The notes beneath the pieces were generated by a model. It had not been told where the DNA came from, did not search any database, and was given only the letters and a program-made list of their open reading frames with translations. A DNA stretch of 64,000 nt from an uncultured Clostridia bacterium (GTDB lineage Bacteria > Bacillota > Clostridia > Christensenellales > CAG-917), in contig CALVKQ010000001.1 in NCBI GenBank assembly GCA_944332815.1, positions 49,697 to 113,696 on the forward strand. The letters run 5' to 3'. The translations under genes were made by a program, and so were the position numbers. Positions 2 through 64,000 of this stretch are shown here, one piece after another (the stretch's first letter is position 1; each line of letters starts with the position of its first letter).

Positions 2-1432
2 TTGCAAGGCATAGTCGCGCAGGAAGAAGCCAAAATTTACATAAAGAATTCGGACAATTTTGTTTACGCGGAAAAGTTCGTCGCCGAGAAAGAGCTGACC
101 GTGACCGAATTTTCCGACCCTTGGGCGCTGGTGCTCGCCTGCAAAGAACATCTCGCGGACAACGGTTACGTGCTTTTCGAAGGCGTCGGCAGCTTCACCG
201 TCAACACCGCCGCCACCATCTCGGGCGCGGAAAAATGGCTGTCCGTCCCACGTTCGGCGCAAGAGGAGGCGGAACGCCGCGGACTGGAACTCAAAGCTGA
301 TATGACCCTGAAAAACAGGGACGGCAGCTACGTGAACACCTACGAGTCCCTGTACGAGCGGTATGAAGACGTCCTCAACAAGAACGTCCTGATACACCAA
401 TCGCCAGACCTTGCCACCCTCCGCGACTACGGCATCGCGGCGGCGGCTTTCTGTTTCTACACCGACGAAAGCAGCAAAAGCTCCGTCGGTTTCCGAGAAA
501 AGGTCTTCTCCCGGACCGCACTGAACGCGCCCGTCCTCGGATGGAGCACCGACGAGATAGGCTATGTGGCGCAGACGACCCGAAACGGGTTGTGCGTGAT
601 AGCGTCCGACCACAGCTCCAACCTCAGCTATCTTTCGGGCTGCGACAGCGGCGAGCCCATAAGGCAGAAATACGTCGCCGATAATCTTGTCGCGGACGGC
701 ACGAAACACTACGTCGCGCTCGTCATGAGTGACGGCGACAATCTGCAATGGTGTCAGAACCTGCCCTTCACCCACCATTACAAGGACAGGCAAAATTCGA
801 CCGCCGACTACAAGCTGACCTGGACGGCGCCGCCCGTCATGGCGACCCTCGCCCCCGAAGCGCTGAAATATCTTTACGGCAACGCAAACGCAAACGACTC
901 TTTCATCTGCGGAGTGTCCGGCATGGGCTACATCAACCCGACGATGTTCCCCAGAAGCCGACTTTCGTCGTTCGCCGAAATGACCGCGGAAGCGATGGGA
1001 CGCGCGGACCTGTTTACGCTCGCCGTGCTCGACAACACCACGTCCCTCTATCGCCTCGGTATGGCGATGCGGAAATACGCCGACACGGACGGCATCCCGG
1101 GCGGCTTCATGCAGATAGGCGACAGATATCAGGAGCTTGGCGGCAGGATGATATGGTGCGGCGACAAACCGTTCATAAGCGTAAGAAAGTCGCTGTGGTA
1201 CACACCCGACGACGGACAGAGCAAGGAGGCTTTCATAAAGCGACTTGCGGACGAGATAAACGCCATGCCTGCCGACCCGACTTCCGAAAACGGCTATTCC
1301 TACATAAACATACACCCCTGGTCCATGACGATAGCCGATGTGGACCTCTTCGTTTCGCTGCTGGACGAACACATCGAGATAGTTTCGGCGGAAGAGATGC
1401 TGCATCTCGTAAAAGCCAACGTCCGCCATTGA
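2..1432 (+). CDS. GxGYxYP-like putative glycoside hydrolase family protein (5' end runs off the window)
   Basis: The ORF is open to the window edge and shows a coding-like GC3 pattern. SGMGYINP resembles the GxGYxYP family signature. No signal peptide is visible, which fits N-terminal truncation. Confidence 0.5.
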   Translation: MQGIVAQEEAKIYIKNSDNFVYAEKFVAEKELTVTEFSDPWALVLACKEHLADNGYVLFEGVGSFTVNTAATISGAEKWLSVPRSAQEEAERRGLELKADMTLKNRDGSYVNTYESLYERYEDVLNKNVLIHQSPDLATLRDYGIAAAAFCFYTDESSKSSVGFREKVFSRTALNAPVLGWSTDEIGYVAQTTRNGLCVIASDHSSNLSYLSGCDSGEPIRQKYVADNLVADGTKHYVALVMSDGDNLQWCQNLPFTHHYKDRQNSTADYKLTWTAPPVMATLAPEALKYLYGNANANDSFICGVSGMGYINPTMFPRSRLSSFAEMTAEAMGRADLFTLAVLDNTTSLYRLGMAMRKYADTDGIPGGFMQIGDRYQELGGRMIWCGDKPFISVRKSLWYTPDDGQSKEAFIKRLADEINAMPADPTSENGYSYINIHPWSMTIADVDLFVSLLDEHIEIVSAEEMLHLVKANVRH

Positions 1433-1650: not shown

Positions 1651-3471
1651 TTATTGCTTGTTCTTGAACTGCTGCTTCATGCGTTCGCTCCCCGACAGTA
1701 TGACCTTGCGGATGCGCAGGTGTTTTGGGGTGACTTCCAGCATCTCGTCGTCGTTGAGGAACTCGAGGGATTCTTCCAGGCTGAACTTCCTCGGGGTGTT
1801 GAGGCGGAGCGCCTCGTCGGAGCCTGCGGCGCGCATATTGGTGACGTGCTTGCGCTTGCAGACGTTGACGCGGATGTCCTCGGCTTTGGGGGACATGCCC
1901 ACCACCATTCCCTCGTAGACCATGGTCTGCGGATCGATGAACAATGTTCCGCGCTCCTGCGCGTTGAAGAGCCCGTAGGTCGCCGCCTCGCCCGTTTCGA
2001 ACGCGACGAGGGAACCCGTGAATCTGCGCTGTATGGGTCCTTTGTAAGGCGCGTAACCCTCAAAGAGCTGGTTCATGACGCCCTCCCCTTTGGTGTCGGT
2101 GAGGAACTCGTTCTTGAACCCGAACAGCCCTCTGGACGGCACGACGAATTCCATCCTTATGCGGCTGCCTTTTGGCTCCATGGTGACGAGCTCGCCTTTA
2201 CGCACGCCCATGCGCTCCATCACGGAGCCCACGCAGTCGGAAGGCACGTCTATGAACAGCCTTTCCATAGGCTCGCACTTCTCGCCGTCGATGGTGCGGA
2301 ATATGACCTGCGGCGTGCCGACGCCGAACTCGTACCCCTCGCGGCGCATGGTTTCGATGAGGATGCTGAGGTGCATCTCCCCCCTGCCGCACACCTTGAA
2401 AGTGTCGGGGCTTTCCGTCTGATACACGCGCAGAGAAACGTCTTTCAGCAACTCGCGGAAGAGCCTGTCGCGCAGCTGCCTGGACGTGACGAACTTGCCC
2501 TCTTTGCCGGCGAACGGGCTGTCGTTGACGGAGAAATTCATCTCTATCGTAGGCTCGCCTATCTTGACGAAGGGGACGGGGTCTATCCTGCTCGGGTCGC
2601 AAAGCGTGTTGCCGATGGTGATATTCTCGATGCCGCTGAAACACACGATATCCCCCACCTTCGCCTCTTCGACGGGAACGCGCTTCAACCCCTCTATCTG
2701 GAAGAGGGTGACCACTTTGCTGCGGTAGGGAGAAAGCCCCGTGTAGTCGCACACCATGACCTCCTCGCCCACTCTGACGTCGCCGCGCTCTATCTTGCCT
2801 ATGCCTATGCGCCCGACATACTCGTTGTAGTCTATCGCGGACACGAGCAGCTGCAACTCGCCGTCGGGGTCGCCCTCCGGAGGCTCGATGTAATTCAGGA
2901 TGGTTTCGAACAACGGTTTGAGGTCGGTGCCGGGGACGTTGTAGTCGGTGGTGGCGGTGGCGTTCTTGCCCGAACAATAGAGAATGGGGCTCATGAGCTG
3001 ATCGTCGTCCGCGCCGAGGTCGAGCAGAAGCTCCAACACCTCGTCGCCCACCTCCGCGAGCCTCGCGTCCGGGCGGTCTATCTTATTTATGACGATGATG
3101 ATCTTGAGCCCGAGTTCCAGCGCCTTTTCCACCACGAACCTGGTCTGCGGCATGGGACCCTCCGCCGCGTCGACGAGCAGCAGTACGCCGCTCACCATTT
3201 TGAGCACGCGCTCCACTTCGCCGGAAAAGTCCGCGTGTCCCGGGGTGTCGATGATGTTTATCTTCACGCCGCCCCAATGCACGGAAGTGTTCTTTGCAAG
3301 TATGGTGATGCCCCTCTCGCGTTCCAGCGCGCCGGAGTCCATGACGCAGGTCTGCACCTGCTGATTGTCGCGGAAAGTCCCCGACTGACGGAGCATCCCG
3401 TCCACCAGCGTAGTCTTGCCGTGGTCGACGTGTGCAATGATGGCTACATTTCTCAAATCTTCTCTGATCAT
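1651..3471 (-). CDS. typA: Translational GTPase TypA/BipA
   Basis: 606 aa. G-domain motifs [17 protein letters not shown] and NKID are present, with an EF-G-like domain layout. Confidence 0.95.
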
Positions 3472-9635: not shown

Positions 9636-10247
9636 ATGGAGATAGCGATAATACTCAATTCCGGCGTGCCCGTCACGAGGGAGATCACCGCCGACAAAGT
9701 CATCTGCACTGACGGAGGGCTGCTGCTCTCACCCGTGCGCCCCGACTATCTTGTGGGCGACCTGGACTCGCTCGCTTCCCCACCCGAGGACATCCCCCTG
9801 CTCAGGCACGACTCGCACAAGAATTTCACGGACGGGGAATCCGCCGTGCGCTTTGCCGCGGAACTCGGCGCGGATCTGGTCACACTTTACGGCGTGACGG
9901 GAGGCAGATGCGACCACTTCCTCGGCAACCTGGCGACCATGGCGCTTGCGATGGAACTCGGGATGAAAGTGCGTTCTCTCAACACGGACGCGGAGATATA
10001 CGGCGTGTCGGCTGAACTCTGCCCCGACTTCCGCATCCCTCTGACAGTCGGAGAAACCTTTTCGCTGATACCTCACGGCGGCGAGGCGACGGTCACGCGC
10101 GCTCGCGGCGTCGAATACCCTTTGGAGGAACTCACCCTGACTCCTACGGACACGCGCGGAGTGTCCAACCGCGCCGTTGCGGAAGAGGTGTCCTTCACCG
10201 TGACGAAAGGTATGGTGTTCTTCATCCGCGACATCTATTTCAGGTGA
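9636..10247 (+). CDS. thiN: Thiamine pyrophosphokinase
   Basis: GDLDS and GGRCDH motifs, about 200 aa, next to a thiamine transporter gene. Confidence 0.8.
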   Translation: MEIAIILNSGVPVTREITADKVICTDGGLLLSPVRPDYLVGDLDSLASPPEDIPLLRHDSHKNFTDGESAVRFAAELGADLVTLYGVTGGRCDHFLGNLATMALAMELGMKVRSLNTDAEIYGVSAELCPDFRIPLTVGETFSLIPHGGEATVTRARGVEYPLEELTLTPTDTRGVSNRAVAEEVSFTVTKGMVFFIRDIYFR

Positions 10248-16273: not shown

Positions 16274-17038
16274 TCACATCACCTTTATCGTCACGGAACT
16301 CTCATTCACCTCTATGGCAAGTTTTTTGGCACAGCGTGTGCACGTGGTCGTAAATTCCGTCCCCGCCGAGATCTTCCCTATCTTGCTCCCACAACCGGGA
16401 CAATTTATGTAATAAAATGTCTGCCACTTCGGACCCGGCTTCGGAGCAGGCGCCGGAGCAGGCGTCGGAGCGGGCGTCGGAGCAGGCTTCGGAACGGGCT
16501 TCGGTAGGTCGGGTGTCGAAACGATCTTCAGATAGCCCTGCTCAAAGCATTGCGGCGATTGAAAGACTTTGACGCCTTCTTCACCTTCGAACCGTACACA
16601 TGCGCGCCCGTCGATGATGCTCTTCAAAATGCCGATCCCGTATTTTTCATGCCTGACTATACTCCCGACGGGCGGCTCCTTCGGCTTCGGAGGCTCCGGG
16701 ATGACGGGCGATCCGACTATCCTGTCACACCATGCACATATTTTATCTTCGTAAGTGTCCGCGTCCCGCCGCTCCCACTGACTGCACATATAGTATCGTC
16801 CGGCAAGATACCAAGTGACCCAATATCGTGCATAACCCGACGCATCGTAAACATCTTCCAAGTCGTCGACAAGCAGTGGGTATGCGATGTCGAACTTCCT
16901 TTTGCTGTAATCTTTATCATGCAACAGCTTGATAATGTCCGGCGTCAAATAGCCTTTGTTATACAACCACGAAAAAAGTCTTTTCACCCAATCCTGGGTT
17001 TTCTCTCCGCTTCGCTTTGTCGGATAGATCCTGTCCAT
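16274..17038 (-). CDS. Hypothetical protein: N-terminal domain, Pro-rich linkers, Tudor/DUF3553-like segment and C-terminal zinc ribbon
   Basis: AAGGAG SD. PEPPKPKEPP and PKPVPKPAPTPAPTPAPAPAPKP linkers. VRHEKYGIGIL...VRFEG resembles a small beta-barrel module. C-terminal CPGC...CTRC. Confidence 0.6.
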   Translation of the reverse strand: MDRIYPTKRSGEKTQDWVKRLFSWLYNKGYLTPDIIKLLHDKDYSKRKFDIAYPLLVDDLEDVYDASGYARYWVTWYLAGRYYMCSQWERRDADTYEDKICAWCDRIVGSPVIPEPPKPKEPPVGSIVRHEKYGIGILKSIIDGRACVRFEGEEGVKVFQSPQCFEQGYLKIVSTPDLPKPVPKPAPTPAPTPAPAPAPKPGPKWQTFYYINCPGCGSKIGKISAGTEFTTTCTRCAKKLAIEVNESSVTIKVM

Positions 17039-38044: not shown

Positions 38045-38377
38045 ATGGAATCCCTGCTGGACGAACGCACGACGGAACTCATCCGCGATTATGTTCCGCG
38101 CAACGCCACTCTGCATCTGCTCTCCGAGTTTTTCGGAGCGTGTGCGGACGCGACGCGCGCAAAGATAATCTGCGCCCTCTCCATCTCCGAGATGTGCGTG
38201 GGGGATATCGCGCGCGTGTTAGGGTTGAATCAGACCACCTGCTCCCACCAACTGCGGCTGCTCCGCGCGGCGGATATCGTGACCCAGCGCAGAGAAGGCA
38301 AGATCGTTTACTATTCCCTGAAAAACCGCAAGATCGAGGACGTCATGTACGCCGGCGTAAAATTCCTGGGGCTGTGA
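38045..38377 (+). CDS. ArsR/SmtB family metalloregulator
   Basis: Typical wHTH with ...TRAKIICAL...EMCVGDIA...L.QTTCSHQLRLLR... and YYSL, 110 aa. Confidence 0.85.
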   Translation: MESLLDERTTELIRDYVPRNATLHLLSEFFGACADATRAKIICALSISEMCVGDIARVLGLNQTTCSHQLRLLRAADIVTQRREGKIVYYSLKNRKIEDVMYAGVKFLGL

Positions 38378-38493
38378 CCCCGTACACTCCGCGCACATGT
38401 TCGGAGCGCGGTTGAGGTGTGCAAACAACACTTAAAATTTTAAGAGGCCTGTCCCCCATTAAACCTTACTCCCCCACGCACACTAGTTTAGAG

Positions 38494-38638
38494 TTTTGAA
38501 CAGTTGGGGACGGGCTTATTTTGTTCAATTTTTGAACACTTGGGGACGTGTTTGATTTGTTCAATTTTTGAACACTTGGGGACGTGTTTGATTTGTTCAA
38601 TTTTTGAACAAAATAAGCCCGTCCCCAACTGTTCAAAA
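38494..38638. repeat. Perfect 28-bp inverted repeat enclosing tandem 37-bp repeats
   Basis: 38494-38521 is the exact reverse complement of 38611-38638. Between the arms, TTGTTCAATTTTTGAACACTTGGGGACGTGTTTGA occurs twice in tandem, followed by a third TTGTTCAATTTTTGAACA. Confidence 0.9.
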
Positions 38639-38644
38639 TGAGTA

Positions 38645-39202
38645 ACGTCCCCTGACATGGGAGTATTGTACCCCCTCCTTCCCTTCGGGCTTTCCTCCCC
38701 CACTCGGAATAGAGGACAATCCTCCTAAAATTTAAGTGTTGTTTGCCCCCTTCCTTCGGGTTTCCCCCAAAATCGTTCCCCCTTAAAAGGGAACCCACCA
38801 TTTCGGGGGAAACCTTCGGCGCTCGCGCATGACTGCTTCCGAGGACGGCACCTTTACGGAGCCGCCATGTTATGCCGCTTGCAATGCACCCGCTGCGCGA
38901 AGAGAGTGGCGCATTGCCGGCGCACTATTCGTCTAGCGCTCGGCACTCACACGGTCGCCGCCTGTTGCGGCTCCGCTCCGAATAAGTGCGCGTCGTACAC
39001 GGAGTTGGACGCGCCGCGACTTGCAAACGTGGGCGATGCTCGCCCACGGTGCAAGTTTGGCTGAGCGGCGCGTTATTACGTCTTTGAACAGGGGCAAGTA
39101 AAAATCAAGCACGCTCCGAATAAGTGCACGTCGTGTACGGGGTATTTTTTCCGTCTTCGAATAAGGGGAAGGAAGGGTATAATACTCCCATGTCAGGGAC
39201 GT
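38645..39202. repeat. Mosaic structured non-coding element, copy 1 (paralog of 59297-59790)
   Basis: It shares collinear blocks with the second locus, including a 39-nt identity (38693-38731 = 59383-59421) and a 64-nt block (39010-39073). It is closed by an imperfect 29-nt inverted repeat (38645-38673 / 39175-39202). Confidence 0.7.
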
Positions 39203-58868: not shown

Positions 58869-59113
58869 AAATTCACCCCTTGAGTTTGATAAGTTAATTA
58901 TACTCCCCTCCTCTCCCGAGCGCAAGAGTCAGTTCTCGCGTTTTGTCGAAAATGCCCGGGACGTATCCGAGCGCGCTCCGAATAAGTGAACGTGAGGAAA
59001 AAAGTTTAATGGGGGCGTCCCCTGACAAGGCATACTTCCGTCTTCGAATGAGTGTGGAGTGTGTTCAAGCACACACGCTCATGCTTCACGTTATACCGAA
59101 ACAGGAACGCGTT

Positions 59114-59237
59114 GGGACACAACGGGGACGGGGTAAAGCCGGGGTACCCATCTTTGATGGGGCTTGGGGGCGCAAATGTCCAATGAGGGACAAAACGTGT
59201 CCCTAATTGGACATTTTTGCCCCGTCCCCGTTGTCCC
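59114..59237. repeat. Long imperfect hairpin homologous to the 38494-38638 inverted repeat
   Basis: GGGACACAACGGGGACGGGG (59114-59133) pairs with CCCCGTCCCCGTTGTCCC (59220-59237). An inner hairpin is AAATGTCCAAT..GGGACA/TGTCCC..AATTGGACATTT. The GGGGACGGG core is shared with region 1. Confidence 0.75.
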
Positions 59238-59296
59238 GGATAAAGCAAGAACACTCTAACTAGTGCACGTGTGGAATAAAGTTTAATAGGGGCTTG

Positions 59297-59790
59297 CGTC
59301 CCCTGACATGGAAGTATAGCTCCCCCTCCTCCCCGGGGACCCCACAAAATGCATGCATTTTGTGGGGAGCCCCATTCGGGACTCCTCCCCCACTCGGAAT
59401 AGAGGACAATCCTCCTAAAATGCGGAACTCACTTTTTCATAAAGGCGCAGGCGGTGCGCCTTTATGAAAACACCTCTTGAAAAAGTTTGTTTATCGCACT
59501 TACATAATCAAGCGGCGAACAGTGCTCACTGAACGTCGCTCGTGGGGCGAGGAGGGCGACTCGACGCGCACCGAGCCCGTGTCTACTTAATTTTTCGTCT
59601 AGCTTGCGAGGTCGCAGATCCGCGCCGCGACTTGCAAGCGTGGGCGAACATTCGCCCACGGTGCAAGTTTGGCTGAGCGGCGCGTAATTCCGTCTTCGAA
59701 CGAGTATAAGTTGAAATTAAGTACGCTCCGGATAAGTGCACGTGGAATATTAGGGTTTTTCCCCGTCTTCGAATAAGGTTTGGAAAAATA
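59297..59790. repeat. Mosaic structured non-coding element, copy 2 (paralog of 38645-39170)
   Basis: It has the same order and orientation of conserved blocks as copy 1 (59298, 59383-59421, 59594, 59621-59685, 59725-59778). The interior differs and includes a 15-bp hairpin at 59434-59470. Confidence 0.7.
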
Positions 59791-59807
59791 ATTTCAACGC
59801 CCTTGCC

Positions 59808-60233
59808 TTAAACGGCGATATTTGGATGAAGAGCGCGAAAGCCCCACATATCCGGACGCGCGGTGTACTTTTTTTGCCCCAGCTGAAAATCCTCTGATTT
59901 TCACCCGGGGACCCCGATGTACATAAGCGGCCGGAGATGTGGGGCTGACAAAGCTATTCGCCAAATAGCGGCGTTTAACTTGTTAAAGCGCGATATTTTC
60001 GCGTCAGACAAGGAAGAACCGCGTTCCACGGACGCGCGGTGTACTCCTTGTACATAAGCGGTCGGGAACGCGGTTCTGACGCAGTATCACGCAAAATAAC
60101 ACACTTATCTAAACGGCGATATTTGGATGAAATGCGCGAAAGAACCCTGCCGAGAGGCGGAACGTACATTGACGTACGTGAGCATCTACGGCAGGGACTC
60201 TGACAAAGCAGTTCGCCAAATAGCGCCGTTTAA
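59808..60233. repeat. Three tandem long hairpin elements directly after the surface-protein stop codon
   Basis: Units at 59808-59978 and 60110-60233 share basal arms TTAAACGGCGATATTTGG / CCAAATAGCGsCGTTTAA. A middle unit spans about 59985-60090. The last arm overlaps the TAA stop at 60230-60232. Confidence 0.8.
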
Positions 60234-63200
60234 CGGATGCCGATGATGGGAGGCACCCTCCTATTACTCACAGCAGCAGGCGCATCATAGTGCTGCGGCG
60301 CGATGTCCGCGGCTGCCTCTGCCGCTACGACGGGAGCGACGGGAGCGGCGGTGGGAGGCTGAGGCATGATGGAGTCGATGGGCTCGACCTCCACGGGGAT
60401 GGGATCGGGCGCGCGATGCAGTTTGACGAGCACGGCGATGAGGATGGCGATCGCTATGACGAGAACCAACACCGCCGCCGCAAGCGCGATGATCCACCAA
60501 TCAAACGCGGGCGCGGAGCTGTTGACGAACACGAGGTTGCCTATGTAGTTGGTCTTATACTCAATGGTGTTGCCGGTCACGGTGTAGGACTCGGGATCCA
60601 TCTTGACGAGCCTGCCGTCCGCGTTGACGTAGTACACGCTGAAACCGCTTGCCACGCCGTCGGGGATGCGCGCCGTTATCGTGACTTCGTTTGCGAGAGT
60701 CGTGACCGCACCGTTGCGGTTGTTGAGCTGGATGCGCAGTATGCCGCTGACGCCGAGCTCCTCGTCCTCGCCTGCGAAGGACTGCACGTTGCTCTGGACG
60801 ATCTGCCAGTAGCTTTCGCTGCTGTCGACGGTGGTATCGGACAGCTTGTAATCCACCGCAACGGGATCGCCGAAGTCGACGGTGACATAAGTCGTGCCAT
60901 CGGCGACGTAAGCGACCTTGGTTATCTGGACGGTCATCTTGCCGGAGCTGTTGCCGACCGCGACATAGTTGGGGTTGTTCGCCTTGATCTCGTAGTCGTA
61001 GACGCCGGGTCCGGTGACCGAACTCACTATCTTGCCGTTGAAGCGGTAGACGACGGTGAAGTTGCCGACGGACGACCCATCGGACGTCGTGAACTCTATC
61101 TTGTAATTGCCGCTCACGCCTGCGGTCGCATCGTGCACGTCGGAACCGGGCACAACGGTGACCGTGACGGGTTTGGCGCTGACGCGCAGCGCGGTGACGC
61201 GGTTGTCGATGTAGTAGTTCTCCACATACTCGTCGCCTATCATGATCTCGAGTATGTACGCGCCTGCGTTCTTCATAGCCGCGAGGGACTCATCGCCGAA
61301 GACGTAAACGAGTTCCGCATTGGCGAAGAAGCCTTCCACCACTTCGCCGGTGAGCGCGTCGGTCGCCAGGAGGTCGGTGGCAGGAACCAGCCTGTACTCC
61401 GTATTCTCATACGGGAAGACGGAGGACACACCGGGAGCGAGGGTCACGATGACGCTCCTCTGCGCTATCTCGAAGTTGCCGCTTGCGGTGTAAGTGCCGA
61501 CGTAATTGTATTTGTACTTCGAATCCGCCGCGATCTTTCTGGTGACGGTGATGCTCCACGAATAGTAGCCGGACTCCGTGGGCGCCGGGATGACGCTGCC
61601 GGTGATGGCATCCGACCACTCGAAGGTGTACTCATCGAGCGCCGTAAGTCCTTTCAAGACATCCTCCACAGTGAGTGCAACGGGAGAACCGTCGGCGGAG
61701 AGAGTGTACGGACGAGAGCCGTCGACGACGGGCTTGAACACGCTCGTATCCAAAGTGGGAAGCACGATGACGAGCTCGGGAGCGACTTCCGCGCCCGTGG
61801 CATCCACCAGCACCACCTCGTAGTTGGTGAGCGCGTCGGAGTCCATGGTGAGGAGATACTTGCCGCCGTTCAGATTTGCGGTGAGCTCGTAGTCGGTGCC
61901 GACCAACGCCGCGCCTGTGCCGTTCAGCTTATAGGAGTAAGCCGAGCGCAGCGCATTCATGAGCGTGGCAACGTTATCCTTGTCCGCAACGGAGTCAGAG
62001 CTGTACACATTGAAGGTGGGCACGGGCAGAGAGCCGACATAGTATTCGGTTTCAAACGCGCCGTCCGTGCCGTTGCCGGTCGCGACGACCTGCAATTTAG
62101 CGCGCGCTATGACGACGGTGCGTCCGGACTGTGCGGTGACGGTGAAGTTGGTCGCCGTGACGGAGGCTTTCGCTCCGCTGTACGAGCCTGCATCCACCTT
62201 GATGTTCCCGTTCGCGTCGAGGAAAGCGACGCCCGTCGAAGTGACGAGAGTTGCGGTGCCGACTGTGCCGTCGATGCGGACATACGCGCCGTCCGCCGCC
62301 TGCACGAAGGAGCCGTCGTCATTCCTGTTATAGAGTTTTTCCTGCGCAGGCGTGACAGCCGTCGCGTGGGCGAACGCCGCATTCCAGTCGGTGGCGAGGA
62401 TGTAGGCGTACCCTGCCTCGTCCACGATGACGGGTTTTCCGCCGACGGAATAGCTCACGCCGTAATCGAGCGTGCTGCCGTAAGTGCCGGTGATATCGCC
62501 TGCGTCAGCGGAAGTCAGCGCGACGCTCATATCCGCCCTGGTGACGGTGGCTGCACTCGAAACGGTGTAAATGCCGCCGGTGTTGAAGACGTAATTGCTG
62601 TTGCCGGTCGCGGAGTTGATGGCGAAGATGACATCCTGTCTGCCGACGCCGACGCCGCCGAGGGTGACGGTGAAGTCGGCTATGGTGAAGTCATCCGCAA
62701 GCTCGGGCGCGCCGGGCACGACGAGGACGAAGTCGCCGTCGCTGCCGTAGGTGAGCGAAGCGGACAGGTTCACGGTGTCGTCGAACTTCTTGACGAAAGC
62801 GGAACTGTCGAGGATATCCACTCTGAACGCGATCTGTATGGGATCGATCTTACCGGTCGCGGGGAAGTACGCCAATCCGGGGTACTCCTGCGCCACGGTG
62901 AACCCATCGGGAGCCGCGGTGAACGCGCTCTTTTCGGCGAGGTAGACCGTCCTGCCGTTCAGGGTGAACTCGGCGAGGAATTTTGCTCTGACGTCGTCGG
63001 GGATATCGACGGAGGCGTCGTTGCGGCTGTACGCGACGTAATCCGCGACGCCTTCCGCATCTATCTTATAGTTGACGGTGCCGTTCTGCCTGTACAGTTC
63101 GAAGCCGTAGACGGTGCCGTCCTTGGTCGCCGCCGCATCCGCGGAGTCGTAGCCTGCCGCGAGCACTCTGACGCCGTAGCTCTGCTTGACGAACTCATCC

Positions 63201-64000
63201 GCGGTGACGAACCCGGAGAGGGACGCGGTGACTCTGTTCTCGATGACGCCCGAGTACGCTGTGCCGTCATAAGTCTTGCCGGGAAGGGTGAACTCCACTT
63301 GGAGGGTCGCCGGGGTGATATTCGCCCTGAGGCTGCTGCTGCTCGCTCTGAACGTGATGGCGTAGCTGCTTGCGACGTCCTGATTATGCGCAGTCTGTTC
63401 CGCATTGCCCTCCACGGTCTTCGCGACGAGCTTCACGGAGCCGCTCTCGATGCTGACGGAGATATTATTCGCGACGTCGGCGCTGTTGAAGCGCGCGCTG
63501 TACGCAAACTCGAGGCTGTCGATATCCTTTGCGGTGCCGATCTGCACGAAATCGTTTTCGTCATACGCGCCGTTGAAGTCGAGTTTTACGTCGGTGGTGC
63601 CGTCGTAGACCTTGCTTTCGGGCTTGATGCCGGTGATGTCGATGATGATCTCCTTGGGATTGAGCACAGCCTCTTTTGCGAGGAAGAGGTTGGACACGGC
63701 GTACTCGCCTGCCGCCTCGTTTATGGGCGTGTAGGTGACGTCGAAGTCGTAGTTATCCCAATCGAAGTTGCTGCTGACGGCGATCTCGAAGTTGACGAGG
63801 ACGTCGTGATAGTAAACTCCGTTCTCGAAGTTTTCCGTCTGGACGTAGATGAAAGGCTCGTACTTTTCGCCGGTATCTCTGGCGAAGAGGTACACGGGGT
63901 TGCGGATCTCCGCGCTTTCGCCGTCTGCGACGTTATCGATGACGGGCGCGGTGACGGTGGAAGGACCGGCCTGACCGCTGTACATCACGCTGTCGCCCTC
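60230..64000 (-). CDS. Very large surface protein with MBG (YGX-type)-like repeats and a C-terminal TM anchor (5' end outside the window)
   Basis: Recurrent K.YDGT motifs (KVYDGTTDV, KTYDGTAYSG). C-terminal hydrophobic helix WWIIALAAAVLVLVIAIAILIAVLV followed by a Pro/Ala-rich tail. No signal peptide at the apparent start, so the gene continues upstream. Confidence 0.8.
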   Translation of the reverse strand, partial: EGDSVMYSGQAGPSTVTAPVIDNVADGESAEIRNPVYLFARDTGEKYEPFIYVQTENFENGVYYHDVLVNFEIAVSSNFDWDNYDFDVTYTPINEAAGEYAVSNLFLAKEAVLNPKEIIIDITGIKPESKVYDGTTDVKLDFNGAYDENDFVQIGTAKDIDSLEFAYSARFNSADVANNISVSIESGSVKLVAKTVEGNAEQTAHNQDVASSYAITFRASSSSLRANITPATLQVEFTLPGKTYDGTAYSGVIENRVTASLSGFVTADEFVKQSYGVRVLAAGYDSADAAATKDGTVYGFELYRQNGTVNYKIDAEGVADYVAYSRNDASVDIPDDVRAKFLAEFTLNGRTVYLAEKSAFTAAPDGFTVAQEYPGLAYFPATGKIDPIQIAFRVDILDSSAFVKKFDDTVNLSASLTYGSDGDFVLVVPGAPELADDFTIADFTVTLGGVGVGRQDVIFAINSATGNSNYVFNTGGIYTVSSAATVTRADMSVALTSADAGDITGTYGSTLDYGVSYSVGGKPVIVDEAGYAYILATDWNAAFAHATAVTPAQEKLYNRNDDGSFVQAADGAYVRIDGTVGTATLVTSTGVAFLDANGNIKVDAGSYSGAKASVTATNFTVTAQSGRTVVIARAKLQVVATGNGTDGAFETEYYVGSLPVPTFNVYSSDSVADKDNVATLMNALRSAYSYKLNGTGAALVGTDYELTANLNGGKYLLTMDSDALTNYEVVLVDATGAEVAPELVIVLPTLDTSVFKPVVDGSRPYTLSADGSPVALTVEDVLKGLTALDEYTFEWSDAITGSVIPAPTESGYYSWSITVTRKIAADSKYKYNYVGTYTASGNFEIAQRSVIVTLAPGVSSVFPYENTEYRLVPATDLLATDALTGEVVEGFFANAELVYVFGDESLAAMKNAGAYILEIMIGDEYVENYYIDNRVTALRVSAKPVTVTVVPGSDVHDATAGVSGNYKIEFTTSDGSSVGNFTVVYRFNGKIVSSVTGPGVYDYEIKANNPNYVAVGNSSGKMTVQITKVAYVADGTTYVTVDFGDPVAVDYKLSDTTVDSSESYWQIVQSNVQSFAGEDEELGVSGILRIQLNNRNGAVTTLANEVTITARIPDGVASGFSVYYVNADGRLVKMDPESYTVTGNTIEYKTNYIGNLVFVNSSAPAFDWWIIALAAAVLVLVIAIAILIAVLVKLHRAPDPIPVEVEPIDSIMPQPPTAAPVAPVVAAEAAADIAPQHYDAPAAVSNRRVPPIIGIR

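Follow-up and report, generated by a model that had tools for sequence, protein, structure and literature searches.

A three-helix hairpin of uncultured Clostridia as a likely module of mobilisable, non-autonomous intergenic repeats

The DNA analysed here (the window) is a stretch of 64,000 nucleotides from an uncultured Clostridia bacterium of the CAG-917 lineage (contig CALVKQ010000001.1, positions 49,697 to 113,696). It carries two copies of a three-helix hairpin, and this contribution concerns that hairpin and the repeated elements to which it belongs. The most likely reading of the hairpin is as mobilisable 'junk' DNA and not as a one-off regulatory RNA. In a more specific form, to which we assign a probability of about 0.5, this reading holds that the hairpin is the conserved subterminal stem-loop of lineage-specific non-autonomous elements resembling repetitive extragenic palindromic (REP) sequences, bacterial interspersed mosaic elements (BIMEs) and miniature inverted-repeat transposable elements (MITEs), and that it acts in cis as the folded single-stranded DNA end of such elements.

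Both copies lie on the forward strand, at 39010-39073 (copy A) and 59621-59685 (copy B), exactly where, and with the sequences that, a sequence-only reading of the window had given. The three-helix architecture proposed there (8 + 6 + 9 bp) is found in both copies, the folding program extending the 6-bp middle helix by a G.U and an A-U pair, so that copy A is composed of helices of 8, 8 (six Watson-Crick pairs plus A-U and G.U) and 9 bp closed by the loop TGC. Copy B has the same helices, the loop ACAT, and G in place of A in the 2x1 internal loop; the extended terminal stem once ascribed to it is not there, since this stem is 9 bp in both copies. The covariance model described below scores them at 86.9 and 89.7 bits, respectively. 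RNAfold energies are -44.0 kcal/mol for copy A and -44.8 kcal/mol for copy B (z -6.0 and -6.1, with 0 of 200 dinucleotide shuffles as stable), the complementary strands fold at -40.5 and -41.3 kcal/mol, and DNA parameters give -30 and -28.5 kcal/mol. A 33-nt 3' half is common to the two copies and unique to them within the window, where 0 chance matches are expected. Selection on structure had been proposed from the observation that substitutions between the two copies are confined to unpaired positions. From two copies alone this is weak evidence because about 28% of the positions are unpaired and there are only two or three differences; the case is carried by about 120 further copies.

These copies show that the hairpin, seen earlier only as a pair, is in fact a module of a high-copy interspersed element. 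A first scan with an 18-nt pattern from the 3' strand of the hairpin, made over one genome per species, matched at least 99 loci. Among the matches listed, about 91 of 99 fall in five metagenome-assembled genomes (MAGs) of related uncultured Clostridia (CASDRL01, CAAEDU01, CALVTS01, CALWAF01 and CALVQW01), many lie at contig ends, and the eight in unrelated taxa are without the hairpin. A covariance model built from 29 distinct copies was then searched against 0.74 Mb made up of the fetched loci and of strains of the window's species, and it recovered 125 copies, 52 of them distinct, with at least 51, at least 33, at least 25 and at least 9 copies per MAG. Several pattern loci share synteny with the window, with identities of 70-85%, and there are orthologous gaps that are occupied in one genome and empty in the other. 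No match to the hairpin family was found in plasmid, phage and viral collections. Among the proteins encoded next to copies at 86 loci only generic ABC ATPases cluster, and no recurrent transposase is present.

The base-pairing of the hairpin is under selection. Over the 52 distinct sequences, 96.0% of paired cells are standard, as compared with 85.3% in shuffles, and controls with a slid register give 24-50%. Changes on both sides are seen in 11 of the 25 pairs, a count matched by 1 of 500 shuffles, and the covariation score is 0.219 vs 0.056 in shuffles; these figures lean somewhat in favour of structure, since the alignment was fitted to the covariance model. The outer helix exists in the versions CGCGCCGC/GCGGCGCG, GCCGCC/GGCGGC and GCCGC/GCGGC, and helix 2 as CTTGCA/TGCAAG, CGTTCA/TGAACG, CGCTCA/TGAGCG and CTTTCA/TGAAAG, with the adjoining A-T pair being G-C in some copies. 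At least four complementary versions are known for helix 3: CGTGGGCGA/TCGCCCACG, AGCGGGCG/CGCCCGCT, AGGCGGC/GCCGCCT and GGGC/GCCC. Two parts of the hairpin keep their sequence throughout, namely, the 3' bulge (T/C)TTGG(C)TGA and the AG/G internal loop. The G.T at the base of helix 2 is also invariant, and it pairs on the + strand only.

The earlier suggestion of selection on the structure, whether as RNA or as cruciform or single-stranded DNA, is thus borne out in 125 copies, and the compensatory changes that were to be looked for in homologs are present. The uncompensated stem changes that were to speak against it do occur, in that some A.C mismatches are tolerated and have spread, while pairing overall is kept. 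Two abundant subfamilies have an A.C mismatch in helix 3, which has gone back to A-T in three copies, counted as independent restorations, and the mismatched variants AGCAGGCG and AGCGAGCG have propagated to 24 copies. Polymorphic mismatches read A.C on the + strand in 8 events (67 copies), as compared with G.U on the + strand in 4 events (~5 copies). Most copies belong to a small number of master variants. In the 5' strand of helices 1 and 2, which lay outside the search pattern, mean pairwise identity is 0.996 vs 0.70-0.81 in the element body.

The units to which the hairpin belongs were delimited by alignment of long flanks. The first family, Fam1, is a ~330-nt unit consisting of a 5' end that we call the T-end (containing GTTTAATGGGGGTTACGTCCCCTRACATGG), a C-rich 5' module ending in CCTCCTAAAATGCGG, a middle part with ACATAATCAAGCGG, a linker and the hairpin. 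The second family, Fam2, is also ~330 nt long and has a similar 5' end, linker and hairpin around an interior (GGCGCATTGCCGACGCAC...) that is unrelated to that of Fam1. The 5' end common to both families carries CGTCCCC, and typical copies have a T-end at one end only. This 5' end, CGTCCCCTGACATGGGAGTATTGTACCCCC, is unlike the 3' hairpin. The order of the modules is T-end, body, hairpin and R units: the hairpin is followed, after ~6 nt, by an array of one to five R units of ~33 nt (CGCTCCGAATAAGTGNACGTGGGGTTCAAGCA), which are also found upstream of the T-end, and the elements thus sit between R units. The tetranucleotide CGTC is located 6-7 nt 3' of the hairpin in Fam1 and is missing in Fam2. 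In CALVTS, a ~950-nt head-to-head composite of Fam2 and Fam1 with hairpins at both outer ends is present at no fewer than five loci (89-92% identity); the inverted hairpin pairs at the outer ends of head-to-head composites are ~700 nt apart. The gaps that host the elements also hold palindromes with a GGGGACG loop (REP-G), a palindrome with GGGGACGGGG ends and a ~125-nt element, forming a BIME-like mosaic.

In the window, copy B closes a full Fam1 element at 59296-59691 (+), as delimited by BLAST depth against ~100 loci and by the family consensus. It begins with the T-end CGTCCCCTGACATGG (59296-59334) and continues with the 5' module to CCTCCTAAAATGCGG, the middle part with ACATAATCAAGCGG, the linker, the hairpin and 6 nt beyond. 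Copy A belongs to a composite at 38645-39202 (+), defined by its inverted repeat and by the orthologous CALVTS locus, in which inverted T-ends of 36 nt and 83% complementarity (38645-38685 and 39163-39202) enclose the 5' module of a Fam1, the body of a Fam2 (38735-38953) with a vestige of its own hairpin, R units and hairpin A. The R units 3' of hairpin A (39074-39165, +) are ~33 nt long with the core CGYTCYGAATAAG, others being located at 38974-39005 and, inverted, at 38377-38415; those 3' of hairpin B (59686-59790, +) were found by repeat and flank comparison. The likeness of the two loci runs for ~100 nt past the hairpin with ~82% identity (39074-39175 vs 59686-59790), and upstream modules are also common to both (38646-38731 vs 59297-59421). 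The vestigial hairpin (38954-38974, +), GTCGCCGCC-TGTT-GCGGCTCC, has kept the outer helix and lost the inner two when compared with intact Fam2 hairpins, and it looks like the result of a hairpin-templated deletion. It is also present in strains L116 and L114.

Strains of one species differ by gains, losses, inversions and truncations of elements. Same-species strains were picked by contigs encoding exactly the ArsR and RpiB proteins of the window. Among them, the region of copy A varies from 615 to 1291 nt, has the hairpin in + or - orientation or lacks it, and contains either a Fam1 or a Fam2 body. The region of copy B varies from 563 to 1362 nt, with strain L124 being without Fam1 and other strains differing by whole modules. 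Alignment with L116 and L114 reveals an extra segment of 138 nt in the window (38974-39111, +) that is composed of an R unit, TTGGA, hairpin A and 38 nt and is bounded by direct R units. Every resolved junction between strains coincides with an R unit or a T-end. MAGs that are 96-98% identical have, in pairwise comparison, no insertion or deletion within aligned stretches, and more distant pairs differ by whole mosaics.

A mechanism that would unite these properties is as follows. The hairpin would fold in single-stranded DNA and serve as a recognition or processing structure at the 3' end of the element, and a strand-specific HUH enzyme would recognise it during mobilisation or processing of the element. 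This enzyme would most likely be the single-copy Y1 transposase of the genome, which is of the REP-associated tyrosine transposase (RAYT) type, and the conserved bulge and AG/G internal loop are candidate protein contacts. If the hairpin acts in cis as single-stranded DNA, compensatory pairing, the kept sequence of the bulge and the loop, and a hairpin far better conserved than the interior would all follow; families that share ends and not interiors are likewise expected when the shared sequences are those needed in cis.

Several findings weigh against this reading. A clean insertion with a defined target duplication was not recovered in filled-versus-empty comparisons of MAGs and same-species strains, no duplications other than whole R units were found at strain junctions, and each strain difference is equally explicable by recombination between R units or duplicated modules. 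Because the insertions and deletions within the species are always bounded by R units or duplicated modules, transposition is inseparable from recombination. The hairpin, with its 62-64 nt and three helices, is far larger than REPs or the end hairpins of IS200/IS605 elements, and it has no likeness to the small 5' hairpin of the same elements. Its orientation is only mildly biased, with ratios of 39:24 relative to GC skew, 41:26 relative to the local gene-strand majority and 20:9 in tandem gene contexts (p = 0.06-0.09, from 8-kb fragments only), whereas IS608-type elements have a strict orientation bias. Finally, it is the REP-G palindromes, and not the three-helix hairpin, that directly flank the RAYT-like gene in loci L107 (the window's species), L103 and L106, and REP-G is therefore the cognate repeat by the usual flanking criterion.

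The candidate enzyme was recognised in CALVTS, where the gene at positions 770-1663 of locus L042 matches Pfam Y1_Tnp with 40.9 bits (cut-off 23) and encodes a C-terminal helix-turn-helix. Its best NCBIfam model is the 'REP-associated tyrosine transposase' NF047646, at 65 bits, which is below the equivalog cut-off of 80. For a profile of 20 homologues the best solved structure is E. coli TnpA-REP (PDB 4ER8, E = 5e-4), ahead of ISDra2 TnpA, and all homologues keep the HUH histidines and the YIHNNP tyrosine. This gene was the sole match of the RAYT-like protein in a tblastn search of the 99 loci taken from the matches listed, and it is bracketed by two inverted Fam1 copies with 384-nt arms of 90% complementarity and with hairpins at 333-398 (+) and 1949-2014 (-).

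A homologue, P0006, whose protein of 257 aa is 57% identical, is encoded at 10001-10774 of L107, approximately 7.1 kb past the right end of the window, and its position is given by the first 2863 nt of L107, which correspond to 61159-64000 of the window at 97.2% identity. The neighbours of the RAYT-type gene, encoding an AMP-binding enzyme and phosphoenolpyruvate carboxykinase, are kept in four genomes. The species of the window thus appears to encode a single-copy HUH tyrosine transposase of the RAYT type, its copy number being judged from synteny. RAYTs have been described as single-copy, vertically inherited genes (PMC5581495), and a syntenic gene whose neighbours are kept across four genomes fits that picture. 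Between CALVTS and the window's species the transposase has 57% protein and 67.6% DNA identity, and the neighbours have 84-89% DNA identity. In one other strain, the RAYT-proximal neighbour is an FGGY kinase, with a synteny break at a repeat cluster. The gene lies beyond the 5' end of a giant gene that runs off the window. This giant gene, whose 3' part is the region 60230-64000 (-), continued into L107, codes for ~3320 residues, and its product weakly matches a YDG domain.

The REP-G palindromes have the stem TGAACA/TGTTCA or TGGACA/TGTCCA (GAAACTT/AAGTTTC in a more distant genome) and the loop TTGGGGACG. In the window, a cluster at 38494-38640 is formed by 36-nt palindromes, three direct and one inverted, with the stem TGAACA/TGTTCA and the loop TTGGGGACG; its layout is nearly the same as that of the arrays at 9830-9937 and 10790-10893 of L107, which flank the RAYT-like gene. 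The sole sequence link between the hairpin elements and REP-G is the REP-G core CGTCCCC carried by the T-end. The GGGGACG core is found within 700 nt of the hairpin in 58 of 69 copies, an enrichment that is not decisive over background. We would only tentatively go further and consider the hairpin elements, the GGGGACG palindromes and the R-unit arrays as a multi-family repeat system driven by a vertically inherited RAYT-plus-helix-turn-helix enzyme. Such a system, which we hold to be a possible rather than a probable one, would be similar to REPINs (inverted REP doublets), would stand outside the proteobacterial RAYT groups 2 and 3, and would use, in gut Clostridia, a 62-nt three-helix DNA hairpin in place of a short REP as a cis-acting end.

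The genomic setting of the copies, which counts in favour of the main reading, also bears on the best of the alternatives, according to which the hairpin is an RNA-level cis element of 3' untranslated regions or read-through transcripts, probably acting on the complement strand in mRNA 3' protection, as a processing site or in the insulation of convergent genes. RNA-level roles of this kind have been shown for enterobacterial REP/BIME and Neisseria Correia elements. With genes called by a heuristic based on GC content at third codon positions (GC3), 0 of 121 copies lie inside called genes. Copies are enriched at gene 3' ends: of the 64 with both neighbours called, 47% are in gaps between convergent genes, which make up 16.5% of all intergenic gaps (chi-square p = 7e-8), and 8% are in divergent gaps vs a 16.7% background. 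The gaps where copies sit have a median of 1087 nt vs 55 nt overall. Where the neighbouring genes stand in tandem, 20 of 29 copies run antisense to them, and a read-through RNA would therefore hold the complement, which in copy A folds nearly as well as the + strand (-40.5 kcal/mol); the mismatches, mostly A.C on the + strand, would be G.U on the complement, a tendency that is not significant, and the covariation suits RNA as well as DNA. In the window itself, the called genes between ~26000 and 64000 are nearly all on the - strand, and hairpins A and B, being on the + strand, are antisense to them.

Against an RNA-level role stand the missing U-tract after the hairpin on either strand, the lack of a promoter or terminator call at the hairpin and of an Rfam family match, an orientation bias short of significance, and the invariant G.T at the base of helix 2, which pairs on the + strand only. 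This explanation also leaves unaccounted for the fixed distance of the hairpin to the element end and the ends that are shared exactly by families with unrelated interiors. On balance we consider it unlikely, and yet the one that deserves most attention after the reading of the hairpin as a folded DNA end. DNA and RNA roles need not be mutually exclusive, as REPs show, and the hairpin may be an abundant structured RNA domain of a bacterial element similar to short interspersed nuclear elements (SINEs).

It is improbable that the hairpin is a duplex or cruciform DNA site recruited by the host for a nucleoid or topology protein, with its spread being secondary. BIMEs do bind gyrase and IHF, the several repeat families are laid out in a mosaic, BIME-like, intergenic fashion, the kept bulge and internal loop could be contacts of a protein, and R units spaced every ~33 nt correspond to about three helical turns. 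Compensatory changes, however, keep an intramolecular pairing that a duplex site does not need, the presence, absence or inversion of the hairpin at one locus between strains is at odds with a position-specific function, and a candidate binding protein was not identified. Even less can be said for each element being a small RNA gene with its own promoter and with the hairpin as its 3' structural domain, a highly improbable arrangement: a TTGAAA ... ACATAAT stretch is conserved ~150 nt upstream of the hairpin on the + strand of Fam1, but the hexamers are spaced by 18-20 nt with a weak -10, the promoter scan finds nothing, two Fam1 subfamilies do not keep the -35-like part, Fam2 is without the stretch, no terminator was found after the hairpin, and truncation or chimerism is seen in many copies. 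The idea that the hairpin rides along as a neutral palindrome, its copies alike through recent copying or homogenisation, would agree with the few master variants and the spread of the mismatched ones and is scarcely credible because 11 of 25 pairs are compensated, including the three independent A.C to A-T restorations, and because the hairpin is far better conserved than the remainder of the same elements.

The reading of the hairpin as the folded single-stranded end of mobilisable elements can be placed among known systems. REPs are single imperfect stems of 20-40 nt with a GTAG or CGTC tag, and their inverted doublets are less than 130 nt apart (PMC3116915, PMC5581495, PMC3733652); an association with REPINs has been reported only for RAYT groups 2 and 3, chiefly in Proteobacteria (PMC5581495). 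Like the REP/REPIN-RAYT systems of E. coli and Pseudomonas, the system described here combines high-copy, strictly extragenic palindromic repeats, clustered with other repeats in mosaic arrays, with a single-copy syntenic Y1 HUH transposase gene, apparently inherited vertically and itself flanked by palindromic repeats. It differs in that the hairpin, 62-64 nt long and with three helices, is located at one end of a ~330-nt unit, that inverted pairs are ~700 nt and not less than 130 nt apart, that the repeat directly flanking the RAYT gene is REP-G, and that the enzyme has an extra C-terminal helix-turn-helix. We do not file the hairpin as a REP, because size, single stem, doublet spacing and conserved flanking of a RAYT gene all fail. 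With the palindrome-associated transposable elements (PATEs) derived from IS200/IS605 it shares the position of a folded hairpin close to the element end, only a few nucleotides away, the lack of coding capacity, presumably a Y1 HUH enzyme acting in trans, and selection for one DNA strand to fold. In IS200/IS605, in contrast, the hairpins at the left and right ends are alike and ~20-30 nt long, whereas the two ends are unlike here, a strict orientation bias was not found, and a defined tetranucleotide target was not demonstrated. Classical MITEs are marked by terminal inverted repeats and a target-site duplication; here, inverted T-ends bound the composite with copy A, typical Fam1 and Fam2 copies have a single T-end, and whole R units are the only duplications found.

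Modular intergenic repeats such as E. coli BIMEs, the BOX elements of Streptococcus pneumoniae (boxA-boxB-boxC) and the Correia elements of Neisseria are similarly modular or mosaic, have a stable predicted structure, prefer gene 3' ends and vary in the number of short units. No sequence similarity to any of them is known, and R-unit arrays flank the elements described here and do not form their core. Correia elements have inverted repeats at their termini and duplicate a TA, and BOX is not known to have an associated transposase. Long families with terminal inverted repeats flank some RAYT genes (Di Nocera et al. 2013, PMC3733652). The CALVTS RAYT gene, bracketed by the inverted 384-nt Fam1 copies of a family that is moderately abundant in that genome, is reminiscent of these, but the bracket is missing in L107, and the arrangement is thus not conserved with the gene. 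We place the hairpin element, in a broad sense, among the structured non-autonomous intergenic repeats, of which it is a new member.

A REPIN-RAYT system of Clostridia, if confirmed, would be a modest extension beyond RAYT groups 2 and 3 and, provided that the link to the RAYT is true, could offer a Gram-positive model of such systems with a large and easily assayed DNA hairpin substrate. The two unusually long non-coding gaps of the window (~0.85 and ~1.36 kb) are explained as stacked repeat modules and not as hidden genes or riboswitches. The repeats break metagenome assemblies, many copies being at contig ends, and the strain-level structural variation that they generate at fixed loci could serve for strain typing in this uncultured gut lineage.

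Other identities of the hairpin were considered and rejected. Rfam 15 gives 0 hits at gathering score over the window and nothing at the hairpin in a permissive scan of the region of copy A to E = 10, where microRNA-like hits reflect only the REP-G palindrome; no tRNA or tmRNA was found, and promoter and terminator scans place nothing at either hairpin. An intrinsic terminator was dismissed, as a T-run follows the hairpin on neither strand and the scans put no terminator there. Integron attC sites have R''/R' boxes (RYYYAAC ... GTTRRRY) and stand in co-oriented cassette arrays; the hairpin ends in CGCGCCGC ... GCGGCGCG without GTTRRRY, and its copies are dispersed, in both orientations, between housekeeping genes. 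A kink-turn has tandem sheared G.A pairs beside a 3-nt bulge; here, GA is opposite ...TGA in standard copies, but GG or ...TGG is found at these positions in variants, and the bulge measures 7-8 nt. Consensus folding of whole elements gives similar values for both strands (-141.5 and -147.4) and does not decide between them.

Further repeats surround the elements. A palindromic element of ~135 nt at 59100-59235, with the inverted ends GGGACA(N)GGGGACGGGG and a central hairpin, has ~16 related clusters in the fetched loci and lies inside a 282-nt block (~59004-59285) that is missing from strain L125. The 5' module of the Fam1 element with copy B contains a 39-nt mini-palindrome, GGGGACCCCACAAAATGCATGCATTTTGTGGGGAGCCCC (59334-59372), which is missing from the Fam1 of L125 at the same locus, and similar GGGGACCCC-tagged mini-hairpins interrupt other elements (L062, L089, L069 and L107). 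The region 59800-60230, right after the stop codon of the giant gene, is occupied by a ~125-nt repeat family with the inverted ends TGACGGCGATATTTGGATGAAG ... CGCCAAATAGCGCCGT; its repeats are at 59918-59967, 60049-60098 and 60173-60222, and the fetched loci have ~40 matches to the final ~120 nt of the region (60110-60230). Far from both hairpins, at 16417-16500, lies a run of at least five 12-nt units (TCGGAGCAGGCG-like) in tandem, probably the coding sequence of a short peptide repeat within an open reading frame.

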